This document shows positions 1 through 9,811 of a stretch of DNA of 64,000 nt, one piece after another. This DNA comes from Nitrosopumilaceae archaeon (lineage in GTDB: Archaea; Thermoproteota; Nitrososphaeria; Nitrososphaerales; Nitrosopumilaceae): the NCBI GenBank assembly GCA_965209085.1, contig OZ242376.1, positions 1,376,001 through 1,440,000 on the forward strand. The letters are read 5' to 3'. Numbering within the stretch: the stretch's first letter is position 1; every line of letters starts with the position of its first letter. The translations under genes were made by a program, and so were the position numbers. The notes beneath the pieces were generated by a model, which was not told where the DNA came from, ran no database searches, and was given only the letters and a program-made list of their open reading frames with translations.

Positions 1-1199
1 GTATAGATCCGGCTCTTAGGCGTCCTGGCAGATTTGACCGAGAAGTCGAAATTACAGTACCAGATGATGATGGCAGATACGAAGTGTTGCAGATACATAC
101 TAGAGGCATGCCTATTGCAAAAAGTGTCGACCTAAAGGATTTGGCATCAGACCTGCACGGATATACTGGAGCGGACATAAAATCGCTGTGCAGGGAAGCT
201 GCGATAAAATCAATACGTCGCTATATTCCACAGATAGATTTGGAGACTGAAAAGATACCATACGGGGTTTTACAATCCATAGAGATAAAGATTATTGATT
301 TTTACGATGCCATGCGCGAGGTAGTACCCACGGTAATGCGGGAATTTTACGTAGAACGTCCAAAGATATGGTGGGATGACATCGGAGGTCTTGATGATAC
401 CAAAATGTCGCTGACCGACAACATTATACTTGCCATGAAGGATCCTGACAAATTTCACCGTATGGGAATACAGCCGCCCCGCGGCGCCCTCATATACGGT
501 CCTCCAGGATGCGGTAAATCACTTGTAGCTAGGGCAGTGGCAGCTGAGAGTAATGCAAACATGATACTAGTAAAAGGTCCTGAGATATTATCAAAATGGG
601 TCGGAGAATCAGAGAAAGCAATAAGGGAAATATTTCGCAAAGCTGCAATATCTTCCCCGTGTGTTGTGATATTAGACGAGATAGATTCGCTGGCAGGAAT
701 ACGCCAGAGTGAGGATGGGGTCAACAGCGGTTCTGCAAGGCCGGTGCTTGGCCAGCTGCTCACGGAAATAGAGGATGTGTCATCTAACAGGGTTGCAGTG
801 ATAGGTATAACAAACAGACCGGACATGCTTGATTCAGCCATGCTCAGAACCGGAAGGCTTGATCTTTCACTGTATGTAGCTCCCCCCGACGAGAAAGGCA
901 GGCTAGAGATTATAAAAATAATTACCCGCAACATGCCACTTGCCGATGATGTAAATTTTACAGAGATTGCAATATCCACGCAAAATTATACGGGTGCGGA
1001 TCTTGCATCACTGTGCAGGGAAGCTGGAATATTAGCCATGAAGGCAGAATCAAAATCCATCCGCAGTACCGACTTTGCATCAGCACTCAAGAAAATAAAT
1101 CCGTCAATAACACCGGATGTTGAAAAATGGTATGCAGACATGCAAAAAAATATGTCAAACGCCCTTCCAAAGCCTTTAGATAAGCCGTTTTACCGCTGA
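1..1199 (+). CDS. cdc48: CDC48/p97 (VCP) family AAA+ ATPase, 5'-truncated by the window edge
   Basis: End of the first AAA domain (DPALRRPGRFDRE, upstream in frame), second Walker A GPPGCGKS, Walker B ILDEID, SRH TNRPD...LRTGRLD; C-terminal HbYX-like FYR. Confidence 0.93.
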   Translation, partial: IDPALRRPGRFDREVEITVPDDDGRYEVLQIHTRGMPIAKSVDLKDLASDLHGYTGADIKSLCREAAIKSIRRYIPQIDLETEKIPYGVLQSIEIKIIDFYDAMREVVPTVMREFYVERPKIWWDDIGGLDDTKMSLTDNIILAMKDPDKFHRMGIQPPRGALIYGPPGCGKSLVARAVAAESNANMILVKGPEILSKWVGESEKAIREIFRKAAISSPCVVILDEIDSLAGIRQSEDGVNSGSARPVLGQLLTEIEDVSSNRVAVIGITNRPDMLDSAMLRTGRLDLSLYVAPPDEKGRLEIIKIITRNMPLADDVNFTEIAISTQNYTGADLASLCREAGILAMKAESKSIRSTDFASALKKINPSITPDVEKWYADMQKNMSNALPKPLDKPFYR

Positions 1200-1206
1200 A
1201 TGTCAC

Positions 1207-1497
1207 ATGCCGTTGCCAATAAAGCATACCGTGTTTGACATTATAGAAAAGGCAAAATCTCTTACAGATTCTGAACTTGAAAAAGTACTCATAAAAAACA
1301 GCATAATCATACCCAAAGACATATTCAATAAAATACTTTTAGATTTGGAGATAATGGGTAAGGTTAGCGTTACATGGCTCTCAAAGGATGCAAGAAGGAT
1401 AGAGGTTATCGAGACCCAATACGAGGTCGACGAAGTGGAGCAGGAAAATGTCAAAGCTACAGAACGTGATTATGAGGCAAGTTTTCCCGGAACCTAG
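1207..1497 (+). CDS. Small winged-helix-like protein with acidic C-terminal tail
   Basis: 96-aa ORF 7 nt after cdc48; FNKILLDLEIMGKVSV resembles a wHTH recognition helix plus wing. Confidence 0.65.
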   Translation: MPLPIKHTVFDIIEKAKSLTDSELEKVLIKNSIIIPKDIFNKILLDLEIMGKVSVTWLSKDARRIEVIETQYEVDEVEQENVKATERDYEASFPGT

Positions 1498-2372
1498 ATT
1501 CTTATGTGAAATGCAGCATCCAATGCAACTCCTGCGAATATTATTACAAGATATGGTGCAGTTACTTTGTAAGCTTTCCACGCAAACTCAGAAGTTGGAT
1601 TTTGTACCAACTTGTAATGGTATACAAGCATCAATCCGCCAGATACTGCTGCAATTACAAGATAAACTAGACCAAGTCCAAATGCGTACAGTACAAGTGA
1701 ATACGGCAAAAGCAACGCAGTGTTAACTAGTATGTATTTTGAGGTTTTGTGCATTCCTATAACCACCGGCAGCATTGGAATCTTGGCTGCTGCATAATCG
1801 TCTCTGATCTTCATGGCAAGACACCAAAAATGTGACGGAGTCCACGCAAAAACCAAAAATCCCACCAAAATTCCAAGAATGTTGATCGAGCCATCCGCTG
1901 CTGCCCATCCGGCCATCGAGGCGGCACTGCCGGCAAATCCGCCTATTACGATGTTTGATGTGTGTCGACGTTTGAGCCATACTGTGTATATTATTACATA
2001 AAAGAACACTCCAAGCGCGGTAAAAAATGCAGTGAGTGGATTTAATGCAAAATATGCGTATATCACGGATGCACAGCTTGCAGCAAGCCCATATGCTAGC
2101 ACTACTGTCGGTGAGATGCTGCCAGATGGTATGGGTCGTTTGCTAGTTCTAGTCATAATCAGATCTATATCCTTGTCATAATAGTGGTTGAGCGCGCTAG
2201 AGCCTGCAGATGCAACTGCACCCACTATGATAATGTTCAAGTATGCAGCATAATTTGGTGAATCCGGCATTACATACAGCGTTTCGGCAGCATACAGTGA
2301 CGTAACTGCCGTAATTACCAACAGTATCACTATGCGCGGTTTCGAGACCTCTAGTATCTGAGCAAGCACCAA
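1494..2372 (-). CDS. cyoE: Protoheme IX farnesyltransferase (heme o synthase)
   Basis: UbiA-family motifs NHYYDKDIDLIMTRTSKRPIPSG, YTVWLKRR, WTPSHFW, DDYAAAKIPMLPV; multi-TM. Confidence 0.93.
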   Translation of the reverse strand: MVLAQILEVSKPRIVILLVITAVTSLYAAETLYVMPDSPNYAAYLNIIIVGAVASAGSSALNHYYDKDIDLIMTRTSKRPIPSGSISPTVVLAYGLAASCASVIYAYFALNPLTAFFTALGVFFYVIIYTVWLKRRHTSNIVIGGFAGSAASMAGWAAADGSINILGILVGFLVFAWTPSHFWCLAMKIRDDYAAAKIPMLPVVIGMHKTSKYILVNTALLLPYSLVLYAFGLGLVYLVIAAVSGGLMLVYHYKLVQNPTSEFAWKAYKVTAPYLVIIFAGVALDAAFHIRI

Positions 2373-2586
2373 GGAAATTTATGAATATATCGGGATTTTT
2401 AACTCTATAGTACTCCCGTTTTAGGGATCGTATGGCGTGTTCAATCCACGCATATTCGGTATGAGGTCAGCACCTCGTGCTATTTTGTGCATACATATTC
2501 ATTTATTGCATAAATTCTAGGCATGATGTGACCTCGCACCATATTCGTTTACAAAGGGTTAATTATTACGCCTAGTGAGGGCGGTT

Positions 2587-3372
2587 ATGAGTAACTGGGA
2601 TTTAATGATGCCCGGAATGGGTCTTACAGCCATAGGTCTTGCAGGAGTTGTCATATCCTATTCAGGAGTGGCTCACACGTTCTTAGACGGTATGCACTCT
2701 CTGACCGGACTTACCATGTTTATAGGACTGATCTTTTTGGCAGCTGGAATATTACAGGGCGGTGTATCCACTAGCAACAAGGCAAAGGCCACAGTTTTAG
2801 TCATACTTTCAATATCACTGGCATTTGGAACTGCCGGACTGATATACAACACGATAAGCACGGTTCCACTCTTTGCTGGGATTATGATGATTATTGTAGT
2901 ACCTGCAATTATCATAGCGTATGTATCTACAAAGATGCCAGCGTACGCGCGCGCCATGTCGATAATATTTATACTTGCGGCAGTGGCAGGGATAAGTTCG
3001 TTTACAGCGTTTGGTTATATTGGTCCATCACCGTATCTTGTAGAAGAGACCGTGGTGGCAGAACCCATACCAGAAATTCCCCAGGGTCGGGCATTTGCAA
3101 TATCCATACTAGCAGGTTCCGCCCAGCAGGGCAATCCAGACTATGATCCAGAAAACGCAGTTGTTCCATCAGGTGAGATCATAAAATGGTCAAACGACGA
3201 CGATATTGTTCACACGGTAACTAGTACAAAGGATGTTGGGGAATCATTTGATTCAGGATTAATCTCGCCCGGTAGCGAGTATCTGCTTGATCCGTCAATA
3301 CTTGAATCCAAAGCGTATGACTATCTTTGCATAGTACATCCGTGGATGAGTGCCTCTTTTACAATCGAATAA
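2587..3372 (+). CDS. Membrane protein with C-terminal cupredoxin (blue copper) domain
   Basis: About 5 TM helices, then WSNDDDIVHTVTS...YLCIVHPWM (type-1 Cu ligands His/Cys/His/Met); ATG 2587 follows a TATA-like element at ~2559-2568. Confidence 0.85.
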   Translation: MSNWDLMMPGMGLTAIGLAGVVISYSGVAHTFLDGMHSLTGLTMFIGLIFLAAGILQGGVSTSNKAKATVLVILSISLAFGTAGLIYNTISTVPLFAGIMMIIVVPAIIIAYVSTKMPAYARAMSIIFILAAVAGISSFTAFGYIGPSPYLVEETVVAEPIPEIPQGRAFAISILAGSAQQGNPDYDPENAVVPSGEIIKWSNDDDIVHTVTSTKDVGESFDSGLISPGSEYLLDPSILESKAYDYLCIVHPWMSASFTIE

Positions 3373-3788
3373 TGTTGACAGATTACATATTGTTAAATGA
3401 GTCACATACAAAAAAAATGTCAGATCATGCCAAAAACTCTCTTCCAAATGAGGCATGTGCCATTTTACTTGGTGATGTAGATGGCAGAGGTGTCATTCTA
3501 AAAGAAACGGTCATGGTAGAGAATGCGGATGCATCACCTGTTGAATTTTCCATAAATCCAGATCAATTATTCAGCACATATGCAAAGGCTGAAAAAGATG
3601 GTCTAAAGGTAATCGGAATATTTCATTCGCATCCAGTATCAGAAGCTGAGCCATCAGAGATGGATAAGAAATTTATGATGATAAATCCAGGAGTGTGGCT
3701 CATTTATTCCCAATCTAGCGGAAAATTTGCAGCATACGGCATCGATAGCGATAAAGCAGTGTATAAAATTTACATTCGTATGCATTAG
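3372..3788 (+). CDS. JAB/MPN+ (Mov34, M67) metalloprotease
   Basis: PNEACAILLG and IFHSHP...PSEMD (JAMM motif); ATG overlaps the upstream stop. Confidence 0.88.
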   Translation: MLTDYILLNESHTKKMSDHAKNSLPNEACAILLGDVDGRGVILKETVMVENADASPVEFSINPDQLFSTYAKAEKDGLKVIGIFHSHPVSEAEPSEMDKKFMMINPGVWLIYSQSSGKFAAYGIDSDKAVYKIYIRMH

Positions 3789-3824: not shown

Positions 3825-4649
3825 ATGACTGAATCAATATCTGCAACATCAGCTTTGGTTCTGCTAATGGGCAGAGAATATTATGCCGGCGGATATGCAA
3901 AAAAATTTCTGAATTTGGTAAATTTGGATTCAGGTCTTGCCATGAAAAAACTCTCCGACAAGGTTTGGCCAAACTATGGGGAAATTGTTAAAAATCGCAA
4001 AGACTCCGTATACAGAACAATAACAGGCAGTTGTGATAAAATCGATCAGGTGGTTATTTTGGCATCAGGATACGATGCACAGGCTTTGAACGTTGCAGAA
4101 AAAAATAAGGGAATTTCGATATTCGAGGTCGACATACACAACATGGATGAAAAATCCGCCAGATACGACAGTATGGATATGGGGGAAATGCGCAAACGCG
4201 TGTCCGCTGTAACGTGTGATATAACATCAGGGAGTCTTTTTGTAAAACTAGAGAATGCTGGCTGGAACAGTCAAAAACCCACGGTAATAGTGGCAGAAGG
4301 TATTAGCTATTATCTAAGATACGAGCAGTTTTGGGATCTTGTATCGCAGTTTTCCTCTGAAAATTCCCACAACCGCATGGTGGTAGACTATATGGTGCCG
4401 ATGTACAAGATGGATTCAGAAAACAGTGCAAGGATGTCAGGCGTGTTTAAAATAATATGCGATAGTGTGGATATGGATTTTTTGACCGTATACGAGTATG
4501 AAAATATGCACAAACGCATACTTGGACTTGGTGGAAGGCCCATATCACATGAAACGCTTCACATGATGGAGCTTGCGCGCACCGGAAAGAGTACGTATTT
4601 TGATCAAAGTTCACGCGGGGGCATAGAAACGTGTTCTTTTGACATATGA
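3825..4649 (+). CDS. Class I SAM-dependent methyltransferase (LCM-like family)
   Basis: QVVILASGYD, FEVD and IVAEGISYYL motifs typical of the leucine carboxyl methyltransferase-like family. Confidence 0.8.
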   Translation: MTESISATSALVLLMGREYYAGGYAKKFLNLVNLDSGLAMKKLSDKVWPNYGEIVKNRKDSVYRTITGSCDKIDQVVILASGYDAQALNVAEKNKGISIFEVDIHNMDEKSARYDSMDMGEMRKRVSAVTCDITSGSLFVKLENAGWNSQKPTVIVAEGISYYLRYEQFWDLVSQFSSENSHNRMVVDYMVPMYKMDSENSARMSGVFKIICDSVDMDFLTVYEYENMHKRILGLGGRPISHETLHMMELARTGKSTYFDQSSRGGIETCSFDI

Positions 4650-4683
4650 TATGGCATATATGCGGATTACTGACGATATAGTT

Positions 4684-5463
4684 ATGCTGACTGTAATTCC
4701 GATCAAGGCTGCAAGAGAGCGCGGCGTGTTTAATCTCTTTGATGCCATAACTACATCTCTTGCAAAGTCTAGCTCAAATTTGCAAAACGGAGACATTTTG
4801 GTTATATCCACAAAATACGTCTCGTATTCGCAGGGCAGATGCATACCGCTTGATGATGTGGTATGCTCGCAAGATGGCAGGACACTTGGGGAAAAATACG
4901 GACTTGGTGAGAATATGGCAGAAACAATACTGCGTGAGTCAGATGTAATATTTGGCGGCGTTCGAGGTTTTGTAATGGCAGCATGTGGGAAAATTCTTGC
5001 ACCAAATGCTGGAATCGACATGTCAAATTCGGATAAAAAAAATGCAATTTTGTATCCAGTAAATCCGTATGCTGTAGCAGAACAGATACGCCGCATGATA
5101 TTTTTAAAATGGTCCGTGCATACGGGTATCATACTTTCAGACAGCAGACTAGCTCCAGTAAGGGCAGGAACCACCGGCGTGGCAATCTCTTGTTCGGGAA
5201 TATCACCCACCGAAGATAAAAGAGGCACCATGGATCTGGACGGCAGGCCGCTGCTTGTTACAGCACAGGCAACAGCTGACAATATTGCCACAATTGCAAA
5301 TCATATGATGGGCGAGGGGGCAGAGTCCACCCCTCTGGCAATAGTCAGAAATTCAGGAGCTAAGATGACCGGTAAAAGAGCAAACCCGGATACTGCTGCA
5401 GTATCGTATGAGAAATGCCTCTATATGCGGGCATTGAGATCAGATAATGCTCAGAGCGTATGA
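4684..5463 (+). CDS. cofE: Coenzyme F420-0:L-glutamate ligase
   Basis: GDILVISTKYVS, PNAGIDMSN, DSR...R.GTTGVA, DLDGRPL, MGEGAESTP. Confidence 0.88.
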   Translation: MLTVIPIKAARERGVFNLFDAITTSLAKSSSNLQNGDILVISTKYVSYSQGRCIPLDDVVCSQDGRTLGEKYGLGENMAETILRESDVIFGGVRGFVMAACGKILAPNAGIDMSNSDKKNAILYPVNPYAVAEQIRRMIFLKWSVHTGIILSDSRLAPVRAGTTGVAISCSGISPTEDKRGTMDLDGRPLLVTAQATADNIATIANHMMGEGAESTPLAIVRNSGAKMTGKRANPDTAAVSYEKCLYMRALRSDNAQSV

Positions 5464-6181: not shown

Positions 6182-6727
6182 ATGGAAAAAAGCTCGCAAA
6201 TTCTAATGATGCATTATGGAATCTCCCCATGGGAGCTTGAAGTTGCATATGGTATATTTTCCAAAAAATTTGCCGTTGAACAAAAAGACATTGAATACGA
6301 CGGCGAGGAATATTCCAGCATACTCCAGATAGACATACCTGTGGTTTTTGGAGACATGTTTTTTGACTGGTTTGGGCGCAAGGAATGGGATAGGATGAAA
6401 TTCCTCCTAAAGGAGATGAAACGCAGAAGGGGCGGCAGAAAGGCGATAAAGACGGTTGTAAATTTTGCCGGAGAGCCGACAATACGGTTTATAGTTGACG
6501 CACAAGACCGCGATTGGTACAACAATGCCGTAGAGAAAATGGATTTTATGACAGAGCTCATACAGCATCATTTGGCCGAGGGTGAGATACCCAAAGGGGC
6601 GGAGAGTGTAACGTACAGGTATGATGAAAAAACAAAAAAATGGTCCATACAGGAGGCGGTTGCAGACGGGTGTGAATTTATTAAAAAAAATGGCTCGTGG
6701 ACAAAAATAATTCCAGCAGAAGACTAG
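6182..6727 (+). CDS. Hypothetical protein
   Basis: Likely start MEKSS at 6182; the longer track ORF overlaps the preceding gene. Confidence 0.65.
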   Translation: MEKSSQILMMHYGISPWELEVAYGIFSKKFAVEQKDIEYDGEEYSSILQIDIPVVFGDMFFDWFGRKEWDRMKFLLKEMKRRRGGRKAIKTVVNFAGEPTIRFIVDAQDRDWYNNAVEKMDFMTELIQHHLAEGEIPKGAESVTYRYDEKTKKWSIQEAVADGCEFIKKNGSWTKIIPAED

Positions 6728-7680
6728 ACTTGCAGCGAATCAAGTATGTCCTGTGCAACCTCAACTGGCCTGCCCTCAGAGGATATCTGCTGTTCTGCTG
6801 GAGGATTGTCCTCGTAGCCTGGTATGTTATCGCCCATACGGCTTACAAACGGACGGGCCGTATTGTTTTTGTAAAATATTCCCACGGGTATTTTATCATC
6901 CCATTCTAATGATTTTGTAACGGCCATTCCCATCTTTTCGTTTATTTGATCTTCACGGTTTACGTTGCCATCGTACCCGACATCATCTAGCCGGTATATG
7001 CGCGAGTGCCTCTCTGTAGCCTCTGATGCAAGATCCTCTCCGGCATACCACTCACGTGTATTCACGTCATTATACGTGGGGCAGGGCTGCAGTACGTCCA
7101 AAAATGACGTACCCTTGTGCTGCACGGCAGAAATTATCAGATCCTTTAGATGTCTAACGTCGTACGAGTATCCCCTTGCCACGAACGTAAAACCGCTTGC
7201 CACGGCAAGTCCGATTGGGTTTACTGCATAATTTGGATTTGGTACCGCAAGTGATTTTGTCTTTTCTCCAAGTTTTAACGTGGGCGAGGCCTGCCCTTTG
7301 GTAAGTCCGTATACTCCGTTGTTGAATATAATGTATGTAATATCCACGTTACGCCGTCCTGCCGCAACAAAGTGTCCGGCACCTATTCCCAGTCCGTCAC
7401 CATCCCCGCCTGCGGCCAAAACTGTAAGATTTGGATTTGCAAGTTTTGCCCCCTGTGCAAACGTCAAAACCCTGCCGTGCAGCGTGTGCACGCCGTAGAC
7501 GTTTACAAAATGGGAAGTCTTTCCAGAGCATCCTATGCCGGTAAAAAGGGCAGTTTTATGTCTAGGCAATCCCATCTCGGCCAGCGCCATTTGTATTGAA
7601 TTTACAATTCCAAAGTCGCCGCATCCTGGACACCAGTCGTTGTGTACATTGGTTTTAAATTCGGACAGTTTAGACGCCAT
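6724..7680 (-). CDS. korB: 2-oxoacid:ferredoxin oxidoreductase beta subunit
   Basis: WCPGCGDFG, GIGCS, TPP motif GDGD...NN, QPCPTYN. Confidence 0.92.
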   Translation of the reverse strand: MASKLSEFKTNVHNDWCPGCGDFGIVNSIQMALAEMGLPRHKTALFTGIGCSGKTSHFVNVYGVHTLHGRVLTFAQGAKLANPNLTVLAAGGDGDGLGIGAGHFVAAGRRNVDITYIIFNNGVYGLTKGQASPTLKLGEKTKSLAVPNPNYAVNPIGLAVASGFTFVARGYSYDVRHLKDLIISAVQHKGTSFLDVLQPCPTYNDVNTREWYAGEDLASEATERHSRIYRLDDVGYDGNVNREDQINEKMGMAVTKSLEWDDKIPVGIFYKNNTARPFVSRMGDNIPGYEDNPPAEQQISSEGRPVEVAQDILDSLQV

Positions 7681-9589
7681 ATGTTAAAACCTCCCGTTTT
7701 TTTGCAGAGCCGGAAACTGCAGACTCTATTACGCTGCAAAGTTCCGTGCATGTCATCGCCCTGCCGGTATATTTTAAAATATTCACATCCGGTTCCAGTC
7801 CGGTCTGTTGCCGCAAAAGCATTCCAAATTGTCCTGTCTGGTTTGATTCAATGTTTATGATTGTTTTGGCATCTTGCAGCATTGAGGATATAATCGCTGC
7901 CGGAAATGGCCAGAGAAGTTTTGCCTGTACAAATCCCACGCGTATTCCCTTATTTTCCAGCATGTGCATGGCATCAAGTATCGGACCTTTGCATGAGCCC
8001 CAGCTTGTTATCATTACAGGCTGTCTGCCTCCGTGCAATACTGCCTGCTCTTCAGGAGGCAGATCTTTTAGCAGTGCGTCGTATTTTGAGAGACGTTTGT
8101 CCATCATTTTTTGCCGTAATCCTGGATCCTCGGTGATGTGTCCTTTTTCATCACGCTCATCCCCAGTATTCCAGAATATGCCCCCCTCCATGCCGATTCT
8201 AGAGCGTGGGGATATTCCATCAGGTACAAGTCTGAACCGTTTATAGTCATTCTCGGTTATTATATCTGGCATCTTTCCGCGGTCTATGCATATCCGTTCT
8301 GGCTCAAACCGGGGACACGTGCATATTGAACTGGCAATATACTTGTCCATCATGTGTATTACAGGCAGCTGGTAGTGTTCAGCATAGTTGAAACATTTTG
8401 CCGTATCGTAAAAGCTCTCCTCAACATCACCTGATGCATAAACAAGACGCGGAAATTCCCCGTGTCCGGCATGAACTGCGCACAACAGATCATCCTGTCC
8501 GTGTCTTGTTGGAAGTCCTGTGGACGGACCGCTTCTCTGATACAGGGTAATTACCACCGGTACCTCGTTGATTCCCGCCCATCCCAGGGTTTCACTCATC
8601 AGTGAAAATCCAGGACCGGACGTGCATGTTGCAGTGCGGCATCCGGTAAGAGCAGAGCCCACCGCCATCCCAATGGCGCATATTTCATCCTCTGTCTGCA
8701 CCACAATAACCGAACCGGGTTTGGTACCGCTAATTTTTTGATGTGTTTCAAGAAAATAGCTCTCATCTGTTGCCGGTGTTATAGGATAATACGGCTGCAT
8801 TCTGCATCCGCATACGAGTTTGCCTATTGCAGTGCCATGATACCCCTGTACTAGTATGGTGCGTCCTTTGCGTTCAGACTCTGGGATAGTATGGGTTAAA
8901 TTTCCAAGTGATGTGCCCACGCCGTGTGCATATCGCGATACGGACGCGTTTAGTTTTCCAAGTGCAGGTTTTGTGGCAAAAACTGATTCTGTTGCAGATA
9001 CGACTTTTTCTACAGATACTCCAAGCATTCCAAATGATGCAGAAACGCCTATGACGTTAAAGAGGCGCACCATGCGGGCAATTTTCGGTGTGTCAAGATC
9101 TTTTGCAAGATCATCCAATATTTGGCGAAACGCGACAGGATACAAATTTACTCCCGCAGTCTTTGCGGATTTGAGCACGTCTTGTACGCGTACATTCTCC
9201 AAACCGTAACGTTCCCTCAGTATTTGCAAAGATGCATCATCAAGCGTAGGAATCTCCGATGCTGCCACATCTTCTAGTTTGGAATCGTACATTATTGCCC
9301 CCCCAGAGTTTACGCTAAAAGCGTGCCGGAATATCGTTTCAGCATCATATGAGGCCATAAAATCAACTCCGCTAACGTTGGAGTGTATTGGCCTTTCAGA
9401 TACACGTATAACAAAATAGCTGTGTTCCCCCTTTATGTTGGAGTGATATTCTCTTTTGCCGAATATATGGCACCCGTTTGCAGCGCATACGGCAGAAAAA
9501 ATATTGGAAGCAGTTTCCACTCCGCTTCCCTGCGGACCTCCAATCATCCATGAAAGATCCCGCTCCATGGCTGCCATAAAATGTGCCAC
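7670..9589 (-). CDS. korA: 2-oxoacid:ferredoxin oxidoreductase alpha subunit (gamma-alpha fusion)
   Basis: IGGPQGSGV, YYPITPA, EDEI, TSGPGFSLM, RSGPSTGLPT. Confidence 0.92.
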   Translation of the reverse strand: MAHFMAAMERDLSWMIGGPQGSGVETASNIFSAVCAANGCHIFGKREYHSNIKGEHSYFVIRVSERPIHSNVSGVDFMASYDAETIFRHAFSVNSGGAIMYDSKLEDVAASEIPTLDDASLQILRERYGLENVRVQDVLKSAKTAGVNLYPVAFRQILDDLAKDLDTPKIARMVRLFNVIGVSASFGMLGVSVEKVVSATESVFATKPALGKLNASVSRYAHGVGTSLGNLTHTIPESERKGRTILVQGYHGTAIGKLVCGCRMQPYYPITPATDESYFLETHQKISGTKPGSVIVVQTEDEICAIGMAVGSALTGCRTATCTSGPGFSLMSETLGWAGINEVPVVITLYQRSGPSTGLPTRHGQDDLLCAVHAGHGEFPRLVYASGDVEESFYDTAKCFNYAEHYQLPVIHMMDKYIASSICTCPRFEPERICIDRGKMPDIITENDYKRFRLVPDGISPRSRIGMEGGIFWNTGDERDEKGHITEDPGLRQKMMDKRLSKYDALLKDLPPEEQAVLHGGRQPVMITSWGSCKGPILDAMHMLENKGIRVGFVQAKLLWPFPAAIISSMLQDAKTIINIESNQTGQFGMLLRQQTGLEPDVNILKYTGRAMTCTELCSVIESAVSGSAKKREVLTYGV

Positions 9590-9624
9590 ACTAATAAAAC
9601 ATATCCCAAAATTTGTAAAAAATC

Positions 9625-9759
9625 TCAGCCGCCGGTGGCAGCATCAAATAACGCGCATTCGCACTTGTCCCGTTCCCCACAAAAAGGGCAGACGCATTTG
9701 CATGCGTCATACTCGTTGCCGCAATCATCGCATTCAGAGAAATCGGCTATTTTTTCCAT
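9625..9759 (-). CDS. 44-aa Cys-rich microprotein ending in Gly-Gly (not in ORF track)
   Basis: Manual translation MEKIADFSECDDCGNEYDACKCVCPFCGERDKCECALFDAATGG*; 8 Cys; TATA-like element 24-29 nt upstream; fills the intergenic gap. Confidence 0.8.
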   Translation of the reverse strand: MEKIADFSECDDCGNEYDACKCVCPFCGERDKCECALFDAATGG

Positions 9760-9782: not shown

Positions 9783-9788
9783 TATAAA
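9783..9788. promoter_or_regulatory. Probable shared bidirectional TATA box
   Basis: TATAAA/TTTATA lies 24-29 nt from both the minus-strand ATG at 9759 and the plus-strand ATG at 9812. Confidence 0.55.
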
Positions 9789-9811
9789 TTGTTTATTCTA
9801 CATGTACATAT

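Follow-up and report, generated by a model that had tools for sequence, protein, structure and literature searches.

The window analysed here, a stretch of 64,000 nucleotides (64 kb) from a Nitrosopumilaceae archaeon (contig OZ242376.1, positions 1,376,001 to 1,440,000), carries on its minus strand a gene for a cysteine-rich microprotein of 44 residues, followed directly by korA and korB, the genes of a two-subunit 2-oxoacid:ferredoxin oxidoreductase (OFOR). Coordinates refer to this window unless a locus is named, and genomes (G), loci (L) and database proteins (P) carry our own serial numbers. From upstream to downstream, the features of the locus are as follows.

9783..9794, minus strand: box resembling a transcription factor B recognition element and TATA box, AAACAATTTATA, read in the sequence 23 nucleotides upstream of the microprotein ATG.
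9625..9759, minus strand: microprotein gene, with ATG at 9759 and TGA at 9627-9625, 44 codons plus TGA (open reading frame (ORF) listing and translation).
9617..9622, minus strand: run of six T (T6) right after the microprotein stop, preceded by a short GC stem at 9642-9628; terminator-like site.
9592..9599, minus strand: TATA-like box TTTTATTA, about 24 nucleotides before the likely korA start.
7670..9589, minus strand: korA, encoding the two-subunit OFOR's fused gamma/alpha subunit (Pfam POR, POR_N and PFOR_II; NF041170, 800.1 bits).
6724..7680, minus strand: korB, beta subunit binding thiamine pyrophosphate and a [4Fe-4S] cluster (NF041171, 428.7 bits), with an 11-nucleotide overlap with korA.

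The translation, MEKIADFSECDDCGNEYDACKCVCPFCGERDKCECALFDAATGG, is an acidic protein with eight Cys residues (C10, C13, C20, C22, C24, C27, C33 and C35; 18% of the chain) and the tail ALFDAATGG in front of the TGA stop. The Cys residues form two similar units, CxxCG-x5-CxC and CxxCG-x4-CxC. A first-pass annotation, made from the letters of the window, had described this ORF with its eight Cys and terminal Gly-Gly (GG), the two units, a TATA element and the position directly upstream of korA on the same strand, and all of these hold. Our translation is identical to the earlier one, and the units follow from the Cys positions in it. The element reads TTTATA at 9788-9783 on the minus strand, after AAACAA, and ends 23 nucleotides before the ATG, and the ORF positions together with the Pfam and NCBIfam domains place korA next. 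KorA matches the OFOR of S. tokodaii (5b48_A) with an E value of 3.8e-139, and comparison with its closest orthologue indicates that the true start is likely M5 (9577) or M8 (9568). Counted from there, the spacer between the microprotein gene and korA is about 50-56 nucleotides long and holds both the T6 run and the second TATA-like box. On the other side of the microprotein gene lies a divergent gene for a 2-hydroxyacid dehydrogenase.

The distance between the upstream box and the ATG suggests a leaderless or near-leaderless microprotein transcript. A AAACCATTTATA-type box recurs upstream of the orthologues, and of 140 distinct loci linked to korA, 124 have TTTA[TA]A within the 120 nucleotides that precede the first Cys codon. 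The T6 run with its GC stem is a possible terminator of the same transcript. The TTTTATTA box, of a ttattaatatt type that is kept in the spacers of Nitrosopumilaceae, suggests a promoter of its own for korAB in this family. A strongly conserved aaaccatttata box stands about 23-27 nucleotides before the start in L003-L018, L036-L038, L061 and others; in a raw open-frame translation it reads '..KPFIRF..', which accounts for the over-long N-termini of some database entries, starting within the promoter.

The ORF is a real gene that codes for protein, and purifying selection on it is strong. We searched 41 related genomes in six frames: the family has 24 other genomes among them, 23 of which carry the microprotein, and five more genomes that carry it (E ≤ 1.1e-5) belong to other families of the order. 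A single copy was found in the source genome (G000). At E ≤ 1, 34 of the 41 matched, the five weakest being partial matches in long frames. Over the last 35 codons of 22 orthologues, all eight Cys are fixed, as are V, G, E, D, A, A, T and the first G of the terminal pair, and each fixed position is written with two to four synonymous codons. Fixed residues with synonymous codon turnover, well beyond what chance would give, indicate selection on the protein, including its tail, and not on the DNA. A profile search also recovered the microprotein from every one of 44 additional genomes sampled within the family, and a pattern scan of GTDB genomes gave 601 matched stretches, of which at least 528 were confirmed.

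The family carries the signature CxxC-x6-CxCxCPxCG-x5-CxC-[AC]-x5/6-[AV]TGG-stop. In an alignment of 61 rows (A4), seven Cys and G43 are invariant, and C33, P25, G28, T42 and G44 occur in at least 90% of the rows. A metallothionein-like chelator, one of the options of the first-pass annotation, is not favoured: the CxC and CxxC motifs are present, but eight non-Cys positions (G28, E29, D31, A36, A41, T42, G43 and G44) are conserved as well as the Cys residues, unlike in metallothioneins, where little outside the Cys is conserved. The same annotation had called for the Cys pattern and the GG before the stop to be compared among homologues, and loss of the terminal GG would have refuted it. The eight Cys are fixed in the 22 orthologues, and the 150 distinct GG-type loci end in TGG (137), GGG (8), GGE (3) or, in L023 and L038, Gly-Ala (TGA). 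Among 121 proteins of up to 140 residues from database searches, the endings are TGG (68), GGG (13), GGD (3), GGE (1) and TGA (1); the remaining 35 are paralogues of other types, truncated or extended entries, or unrelated zinc ribbons. Eight database proteins (P0007, P0009, P0015, P0036, P0050, P0064, P0073 and P0085) run on past the GG, P0085 into the KorA N-terminus. Such a continuation by more than one residue occurs in none of the 150 GG-type genomic loci, of which 147 stop at GG or one residue later and two at Gly-Ala, and these entries are probably frameshifts or assembly errors; they could be precursors.

The microprotein had no family match in Pfam (E ≤ 1) or NCBIfam, and a PDB sequence search with profile A4 gave no significant relative (best E 0.54, RpoP). 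By these three resources, it is part of no family described so far. When 1.84 billion representatives were searched with a profile, 137 proteins matched at E ≤ 1e-3, 57 of them at E ≤ 1e-10, and a search of 90%-identity clusters yielded 284 at E ≤ 1e-3 among 7347 candidates. The orthologues are labelled 'hypothetical protein' in NCBI records, and the ESM Atlas matches are 'hypothetical protein' clusters only. By source name, the members include Nitrosopumilus oxyclinae, Ca. N. sediminis, Nitrosopumilus sp. b3 and a Cenarchaeum sponge symbiont; divergent members come from metagenome-assembled genomes (MAGs) of Bathyarchaeia. One protein (P0089) has the source label of a 'Candidatus Limnocylindrales bacterium' MAG, which could reflect faulty binning or else a transfer beyond the archaea.

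The position before korA is also conserved. We compiled 155 distinct loci (144 plain GG-type, 6 His-rich and 5 non-GG). The 80 loci taken from the GTDB pattern scan were the best matches to the query, so that the count is enriched for orthologues. In 140 of the 144 plain GG-type loci, korA lies downstream on the same strand, with the KorA N-terminus a median of 60 nucleotides away. The others are L014, which is near korB in a rearranged order, L024 and L174, and one more locus that ends too early. korA adjoins none of the six His-rich and none of the five non-GG loci.

The same order extends over phylum distances, which is the stronger test. In a phylum sample, 27 of 256 genomes outside the family matched the profile at E ≤ 1e-3, and 13 of these, all at E ≤ 2.2e-6, make up our set of distant lineages. 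Each of the 13 stops at GG or GGG, after a tail that has diverged (CCIGYGKATGG, for example), and 12 of them lie directly upstream of a gene for about 641 residues, in which POR and POR_N were found in 12 cases and PFOR_II in 11 (not in L179). The exception is G187. A gene for about 321 residues follows korA in the distant loci; its KorB domains were confirmed with Pfam for two and are presumed from size and position for the others. The 14 other phylum matches (E 3.6e-5 to 9.9e-4) are partial, fall in frames of 62-1261 residues and look like generic zinc ribbons. In five loci (L020, L034, L035, L038 and L072), the gap between the microprotein gene and korA is only 2-18 nucleotides or the two overlap, which is compatible with a single operon.

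Redox and iron chemistry is also suggested by other neighbours of the microprotein gene. A dicluster ferredoxin gene adjoins it in L033, L171, L177 and L178, and rubrerythrin or ferritin genes are close by in L173, L181 and L182. In one distant family, a gene for 495 residues stands just upstream of it (L170, L175 and L180; 1251-2735 and equivalents); this is a radical SAM protein by Pfam in L170 and putatively so, from size and position, in L175 and L180.

Within the microprotein, the CxxC knuckles C10xxC13G and C24PFC27G lie 10 residues apart in a protein of no more than 70 residues, as in zinc ribbons and C(P)XCG proteins, which bind one Zn per four Cys. Tandem zinc-ribbon proteins with the pattern CPGCG-x10-CPYCG are matched by the first half of the profile as well, and their spacing is the same as for C13...C24. 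This shared spacing suggests a zinc-ribbon site made of C10, C13, C24 and C27. The nearest PDB sequences, RpoP and the zinc knuckles of eIF2-gamma, are not significant. Alternatively, the metal sites may correspond to two tandem CxxC...CxC units, the arrangement of the first-pass annotation, instead of being cross-braced. The net charge is -7 for the window microprotein, with a median of -6, and is negative in 51 of 61 members; this acidity is ferredoxin-like and unlike that of nucleic-acid binders. Direct binding to nucleic acids was judged unlikely given the negative charge.

Structure prediction yielded no usable result. AlphaFold2 models from alignments A1 (39 rows) and A4 (61 rows) reached a predicted local distance difference test score (pLDDT) of 62.0 and 65.2 and a predicted template modelling score of 0.29 and 0.35, respectively, which is too poor to interpret; no beta-grasp was seen in these models, at their low confidence (pLDDT 62 and 65). 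A Foldseek search of the A4 model against the PDB gave no match at E ≤ 0.001, and its rows at E 5-10 (rubredoxin, LysW and nucleocapsid fingers) are meaningless. Prediction of a complex of KorA, KorB and the microprotein (alignments A2, A3 and A4) scored 0.01 against a mark of 0.32, and counts neither way.

Three types of the family occur in Nitrosopumilaceae: type A, to which the window microprotein belongs, the His-rich type B and type C with a non-GG tail. The paralogues of types B and C were located as follows.

L021 3014-3178, minus strand: type B.
L022, L023 and L025: type B.
L026 2095-2277, minus strand: type B.
L027 5228-5374, minus strand: type B.
L026 4305-4451, plus strand: type C.
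L027 2962-3105, minus strand: type C.
L028 3023-3157, plus strand: type C.
L029 3040-3180, minus strand, and 3532-3681, plus strand: type C.

Type B has a CxxCH...HCHC pattern (CxxCH..HCHCKCPYCGERDKCECALFDAATGG) and the same GG tail as type A. Its neighbours are double-RAM (AsnC_trans_reg), Lrp/AsnC and TFIIB genes, and it is also found fused to RAM or HNH-like domains. Type C (MREDFAEYTKC..C...LL.C.CNCP.CGKR..C.CEL...) keeps the eight Cys and has unrelated, non-GG tails; two type C genes are near universal stress protein genes. A genome may hold up to seven copies of the family (G221).

The family has also been joined to larger domains. In G036, a NifU-like domain (PF01106, E 6.4e-7) precedes the microprotein domain in a protein of 118 residues (L034 2744-3097, plus strand) encoded directly upstream of korA; the same fusion is the database representative P0093, and it was observed in a single lineage. 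The RAM/AsnC ligand-binding domain (PF01037) is N-terminal to a type B domain in P0078, P0149, P0151, P0152 and L026 (2095-2529, minus strand), in proteins of 126-142 residues that all end in ATGG. In P0148 (258 residues) and P0150 (256 residues), an N-terminal domain of about 210 residues with an HNH-like Cys/His motif, judged by eye, precedes an ATGGG or VTGGG end. In all of these fusions, the microprotein domain is C-terminal and the GG is left free.

We tentatively regard the microprotein as a zinc-ribbon-based accessory partner of the two-subunit OFOR, with two metal sites and a C-terminal tail that docks on its partner. We consider this reading somewhat less than evenly probable. It is favoured because the korA order is kept in 140 of 144 loci and in 12 of 13 distant lineages, because a NifU-like fusion occurs upstream of korA and redox genes lie near the microprotein gene, because protein-level selection covers both the Cys residues and the tail, and because the zinc-ribbon spacing and the acidic charge are joined by a possibly reciprocal pattern of a KorA loop (described below). 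The first-pass annotation had proposed, among other roles, an Fe-S accessory for the oxidoreductase. Given the korA order and the NifU-like fusion, this survives in a general form, as an OFOR-associated putative metal-binding partner.

In this model of an accessory partner, C10/C13 and C24/C27 would be the two knuckles of a short zinc ribbon, and C20/C22 with C33/C35 would form a second, cross-braced site that could hold Zn, Fe or an Fe-S cluster. Beyond the last Cys, nine residues may act as a flexible tail, the [AV]TGG carboxylate end of which would insert into a pocket of the partner protein. The microprotein would dock on KorAB as a dispensable partner, where it might either assist the insertion or stability of the single [4Fe-4S] cluster or provide the interface on the ferredoxin side, which is missing in two-subunit OFORs because they have no delta subunit (domain V). 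Paralogues and fusions with the same tail could bring other modules, such as the RAM ligand sensor and the NifU scaffold, to the same pocket. The available sections of a 2026 review describe two-subunit archaeal OFORs as alpha-beta enzymes with no domain V and one cluster that need an external acceptor, and they also describe extra OFOR subunits of uncertain role (epsilon; PorE) and an unsettled subunit composition (PMC13768988). We counted these extra subunits in favour of an accessory role. A role confined to protection from oxygen was judged unlikely, with members coming from Bathyarchaeia MAGs. Bathyarchaeia are anaerobes.

Several observations weigh against a partner of KorAB. The gene is co-located with korA-korB, but it is not present wherever korAB is. 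Among the 41 relatives, 40 have korA (NF041170), and five of these (G005, G025, G033, G034 and G040) gave no microprotein with either the single sequence or profile A4 (best E 0.08). A sixth (G026) gave none with the single-sequence query, the only one used for it, and the sole weak match in a seventh (G028; E 7.1e-4) is in a 345-residue frame on another contig. Completeness is 95% for G005 and 100%, in one contig, for G033. No same-strand Cys-rich ORF was found upstream of korA in any of the seven, with only about 420 bases (G028) and 610 bases (G026) available before the contig end. The microprotein is therefore not an obligatory subunit of KorAB. In G187, moreover, the microprotein gene is about 1 Mb from the only, divergent, KorA-like gene, and in G007 it is near korB in a rearranged position. 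The microprotein gene and korA apparently have separate promoters in Nitrosopumilaceae. Type B, with an identical tail, adjoins korA in none of its six loci, so the target of the tail may not be KorAB.

A KorA loop may bear on these losses. An insertion of 13-18 residues (..NPQxEE..) was found in KorA of six of the seven microprotein-free genomes (L194-L199) and in none of 37 microprotein-linked KorAs. It lies after residue ~280 (M8 numbering; about 8730 in the window), between the YPITP helix and the QTEDE strand, and the S. tokodaii OFOR has a 7-residue insertion at the same site. This hints that the loop and the microprotein are alternatives. The six loop-bearing KorAs, however, form a grade and not a clade in one FastTree tree, another point against the partner reading, and the correlation therefore rests on few events, maybe two or three. 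The losses do not discriminate between candidate partners: the E1-type activating enzyme (E1) is kept in all five and the JAB protease in four of the five microprotein-free genomes G005, G025, G033, G034 and G040, and since korA is kept as well, the loss of the gene favours neither.

The free GG invites a different explanation. A free C-terminal GG is the mark of ubiquitin/SAMP/ThiS-type proteins, which are beta-grasp folds of about 65-100 residues with few Cys. The microprotein could be a carrier or modifier without a beta-grasp, the C-terminal Gly carboxylate of which is activated by an E1 fused to a ubiquitin-like (Ubl) domain or by another ATP-dependent ligase to give a thiocarboxylate, an amide or an isopeptide, by a logic like that of ThiS/MoaD/SAMP or LysW. 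LysW is a zinc-ribbon microprotein that acts as a C-terminal carrier. We regard such a role as unlikely, yet as the rival that survives best. The free GG is the best-conserved feature across very divergent members, docking does not demand it, the codons for T, G and G vary synonymously, and the GG stays free in every NifU, RAM and HNH-like fusion. A tail of nine residues past the last Cys would be long enough to enter an active site, and the genome has both an E1 and a JAB protease. The genes to be considered are the following.

3327-3785, plus strand: Prok-JAB protein (Pfam, E 2.8e-20).
3825-4646, plus strand: leucine carboxyl methyltransferase-like protein (Pfam).
4639-5460, plus strand: F420-0:gamma-glutamyl ligase, CofE (Pfam).
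84-1196, plus strand: C-terminal half of a Cdc48-like AAA ATPase (Pfam).
L039 (G000:C1:54059-57760) 1186-2508, minus strand: ThiF-type E1 (256 bits) of 440 residues with an N-terminal ThiS-like domain and an internal ...PAVAGG.
L039 2509-3504, minus strand: ORF of 331 residues just before the E1, a PLP-dependent (pyridoxal phosphate-dependent) enzyme of threonine-/cysteine-synthase type by eye.

The first four lie 4-9 kb from the microprotein gene, and no link to the microprotein was found for them. The first-pass annotation had pointed to a JAMM protease and Cdc48 near by and had allowed that this might be coincidental. Both are there, and their proximity does look coincidental, with no E1 or JAB gene in the scanned distant flanks and both kept where the microprotein is absent. 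The ThiF-type E1 is the only one of the genome, stands 1.3 Mb from the microprotein gene, follows the PLP-enzyme gene and is fused to its own ThiS-like domain. With the 331-residue ORF, it may form an operon for Ubl-dependent sulfur incorporation. This arrangement fits the description of Ubl-E1-TBP fusions in Thaumarchaeota in the available part of one study (PMC2948915). A second ThiS-like match is found at C1:217853-218065.

Against a carrier, Pfam gave no match to a Ubl family, be it ThiS, Urm1 or another, and a chain of 44 residues with eight Cys is incapable of a beta-grasp. The flanking ORFs sent to Pfam (75 of 160 from L001-L038 and 28 of 73 from L170-L182) included no gene for an E1, a JAB protein, an ATP-grasp enzyme or a sulfurtransferase. 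The fusion of the only E1 to its own ThiS-like domain, the retention of E1 and JAB in microprotein-free genomes, the two Gly-Ala endings and the near-universal korA linkage, which a carrier leaves unexplained, tell in the same direction. The ubiquitin-like or sulfur-carrier idea of the first-pass annotation thus stands as far as the kept GG terminus goes and fails in its link to E1 and JAMM. A bolder form of it, in which the microprotein would be the first 'activated C-terminal glycine' protein outside the beta-grasp fold, its GG being adenylated and then converted to a thiocarboxylate or ligated, and would act as a carrier of sulfur or acyl groups, or as a protein tag, tied to 2-oxoacid oxidation in Nitrososphaeria and Bathyarchaeia, seems to us improbable. 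The RAM-, NifU- and HNH-like fusions would then carry the tag in cis.

Also unlikely, and ranked after a carrier, is a small zinc-finger regulator, or a sensor of the metal or redox status, acting on gene expression or on several proteins, for which the korA linkage would reflect regulation instead of a stable complex. The microprotein gene has its own conserved promoter, with a separate korA promoter in Nitrosopumilaceae, and is dispensable in some korAB-bearing genomes. Paralogues stand beside Lrp/AsnC-type, RAM-domain and TFIIB genes, and RAM fusions exist (P0078, P0149, P0151, P0152 and L026). Small zinc-finger regulators are described for haloarchaea in the available text of three papers (PMC2253796, PMC6562870 and PMC11241148). 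However, the strongly acidic character (net -7; 51 of 61 members negative) is unfavourable for binding DNA or RNA, and the free invariant GG tail would have no role. The korA linkage persists over phylum distances, at which regulatory arrangements usually change, and the gaps of 2-18 nucleotides in several lineages are operon-like.

A soluble electron carrier, either a rubredoxin-like Fe(Cys)4 protein or a small Fe-S protein that takes electrons from KorAB, appears quite improbable. It would agree with the CxxCG and CPxCG knuckles, which are those of rubredoxins, with the acidic charge and with the position beside korAB, and a rubredoxin serves a pyruvate:ferredoxin oxidoreductase in green sulfur bacteria. 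The need of single-cluster, two-subunit OFORs for an external acceptor, as given in the available sections of the review (PMC13768988), also speaks for it. On the other hand, there is no Pfam match to rubredoxin or Fer4, the 10-residue knuckle spacing is zinc-ribbon-like, a separate dicluster ferredoxin gene is present in Bathyarchaeia-type loci, the conserved tail is left unexplained, and six ferredoxins are reported for N. maritimus in the available text of one paper (PMC12974425). Finally, a Cys-rich leader peptide or upstream ORF, the translation of which would itself control korAB, fits the place just upstream of korA and the 18% Cys, but it is rejected as highly improbable: non-Cys residues and the tail are under protein-level selection with synonymous turnover, unlinked paralogues and domain fusions exist, and the gene has its own promoter, with an oligo-T run before korA.

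Our literature search found no paper mentioning the microprotein. The N. maritimus enzyme is given as Nmar_0413/0414 in the available text of one study (PMC12974425), and by gene order Nmar_0412 is the probable orthologue of the microprotein. Nmar_0412 appears in no main text of the literature searched. Nmar_0412 and Nmar_0415 are both absent from five supplement files of PMC12974425, which says little as these files list selected or changed proteins. A strongly selected third gene before korAB, found across the phylum, would alter how this OFOR is purified, reconstituted and modelled. Ammonia-oxidizing archaea, which carry the gene along with related archaea, rank among Earth's most abundant microbes. 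For research on small proteins, 44 residues with eight invariant Cys and a free Gly-Gly end make a clean, testable case. Its tail would be a docking signal of a new sort or, with lower probability, an activated carrier of a new sort; should chemical activation of the tail be demonstrated, the microprotein would stand in a category of its own.

Compared with known systems, the microprotein shares with rubredoxin the CxxCG ... CPxCG knuckles, the small size and the acidity. It differs in that its knuckles are 10 residues apart, with four extra Cys, and there is no PF00301 match; the row for P. abyssi rubredoxin in the Foldseek search was insignificant (E 7.5). In rubredoxins, the knuckles are about 29 residues apart, around an aromatic core. 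Like the delta subunit of OFORs, the epsilon subunit of five-subunit enzymes and PorE/PorF of Methanococcus, the microprotein is small, contains Cys and is encoded with OFOR genes, whereas the CxxCxxCxxxCP ferredoxin motif of the delta subunit, which has two of them for [4Fe-4S] clusters, and of PorE is absent and there is no Fer4 match. The available sections of the review state that the role of epsilon is not known and that PorE is not always in the purified enzyme (PMC13768988).

The amino-group carrier LysW/ArgW is a zinc ribbon of about 50 residues with a conserved tail that enters partner enzymes and a gene beside those of the enzymes served, traits in which the microprotein would resemble it. 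The tail of LysW is an acidic EDWGE, used through the Glu side chain by the ATP-grasp enzyme LysX. The microprotein instead ends in ALFDAATGG, has eight Cys and not four, and is flanked by KorAB and 2-hydroxyacid dehydrogenase genes, with no ATP-grasp gene. With ThiS, MoaD, SAMP and Urm1 it has in common a small size and a free, conserved C-terminal Gly-Gly on what would be a flexible tail. Unlike them, it is a Cys-rich protein of 44 residues with no beta-grasp and no Ubl match in Pfam, and the scanned flanking ORFs included no neighbour of E1, JAB, MoaE or ThiG type.

Of the known kinds, the nearest is that of the archaeal C(P)XCG zinc-finger micro-proteins, such as HVO_0758 and HVO_2753 of Haloferax volcanii and Brz of Halobacterium. 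These are likewise archaeal proteins of fewer than 70 residues with two CxxC knuckles, including a CPxCG, and the first half of the microprotein aligns with canonical zinc-ribbon repeats at its own 10-residue spacing. Brz, according to the available text on it, is encoded directly upstream of, and in the same orientation as, the gene that it regulates, as the microprotein gene is before korA. No sequence family in Pfam or NCBIfam is shared with them. Judged by sequence, what appears new relative to the C(P)XCG kind is a probable second metal site formed by four more invariant Cys (CxC and CxC), a C-terminus that is free and invariably [AV]TGG, and linkage to a single enzyme, KorAB, throughout the phylum.

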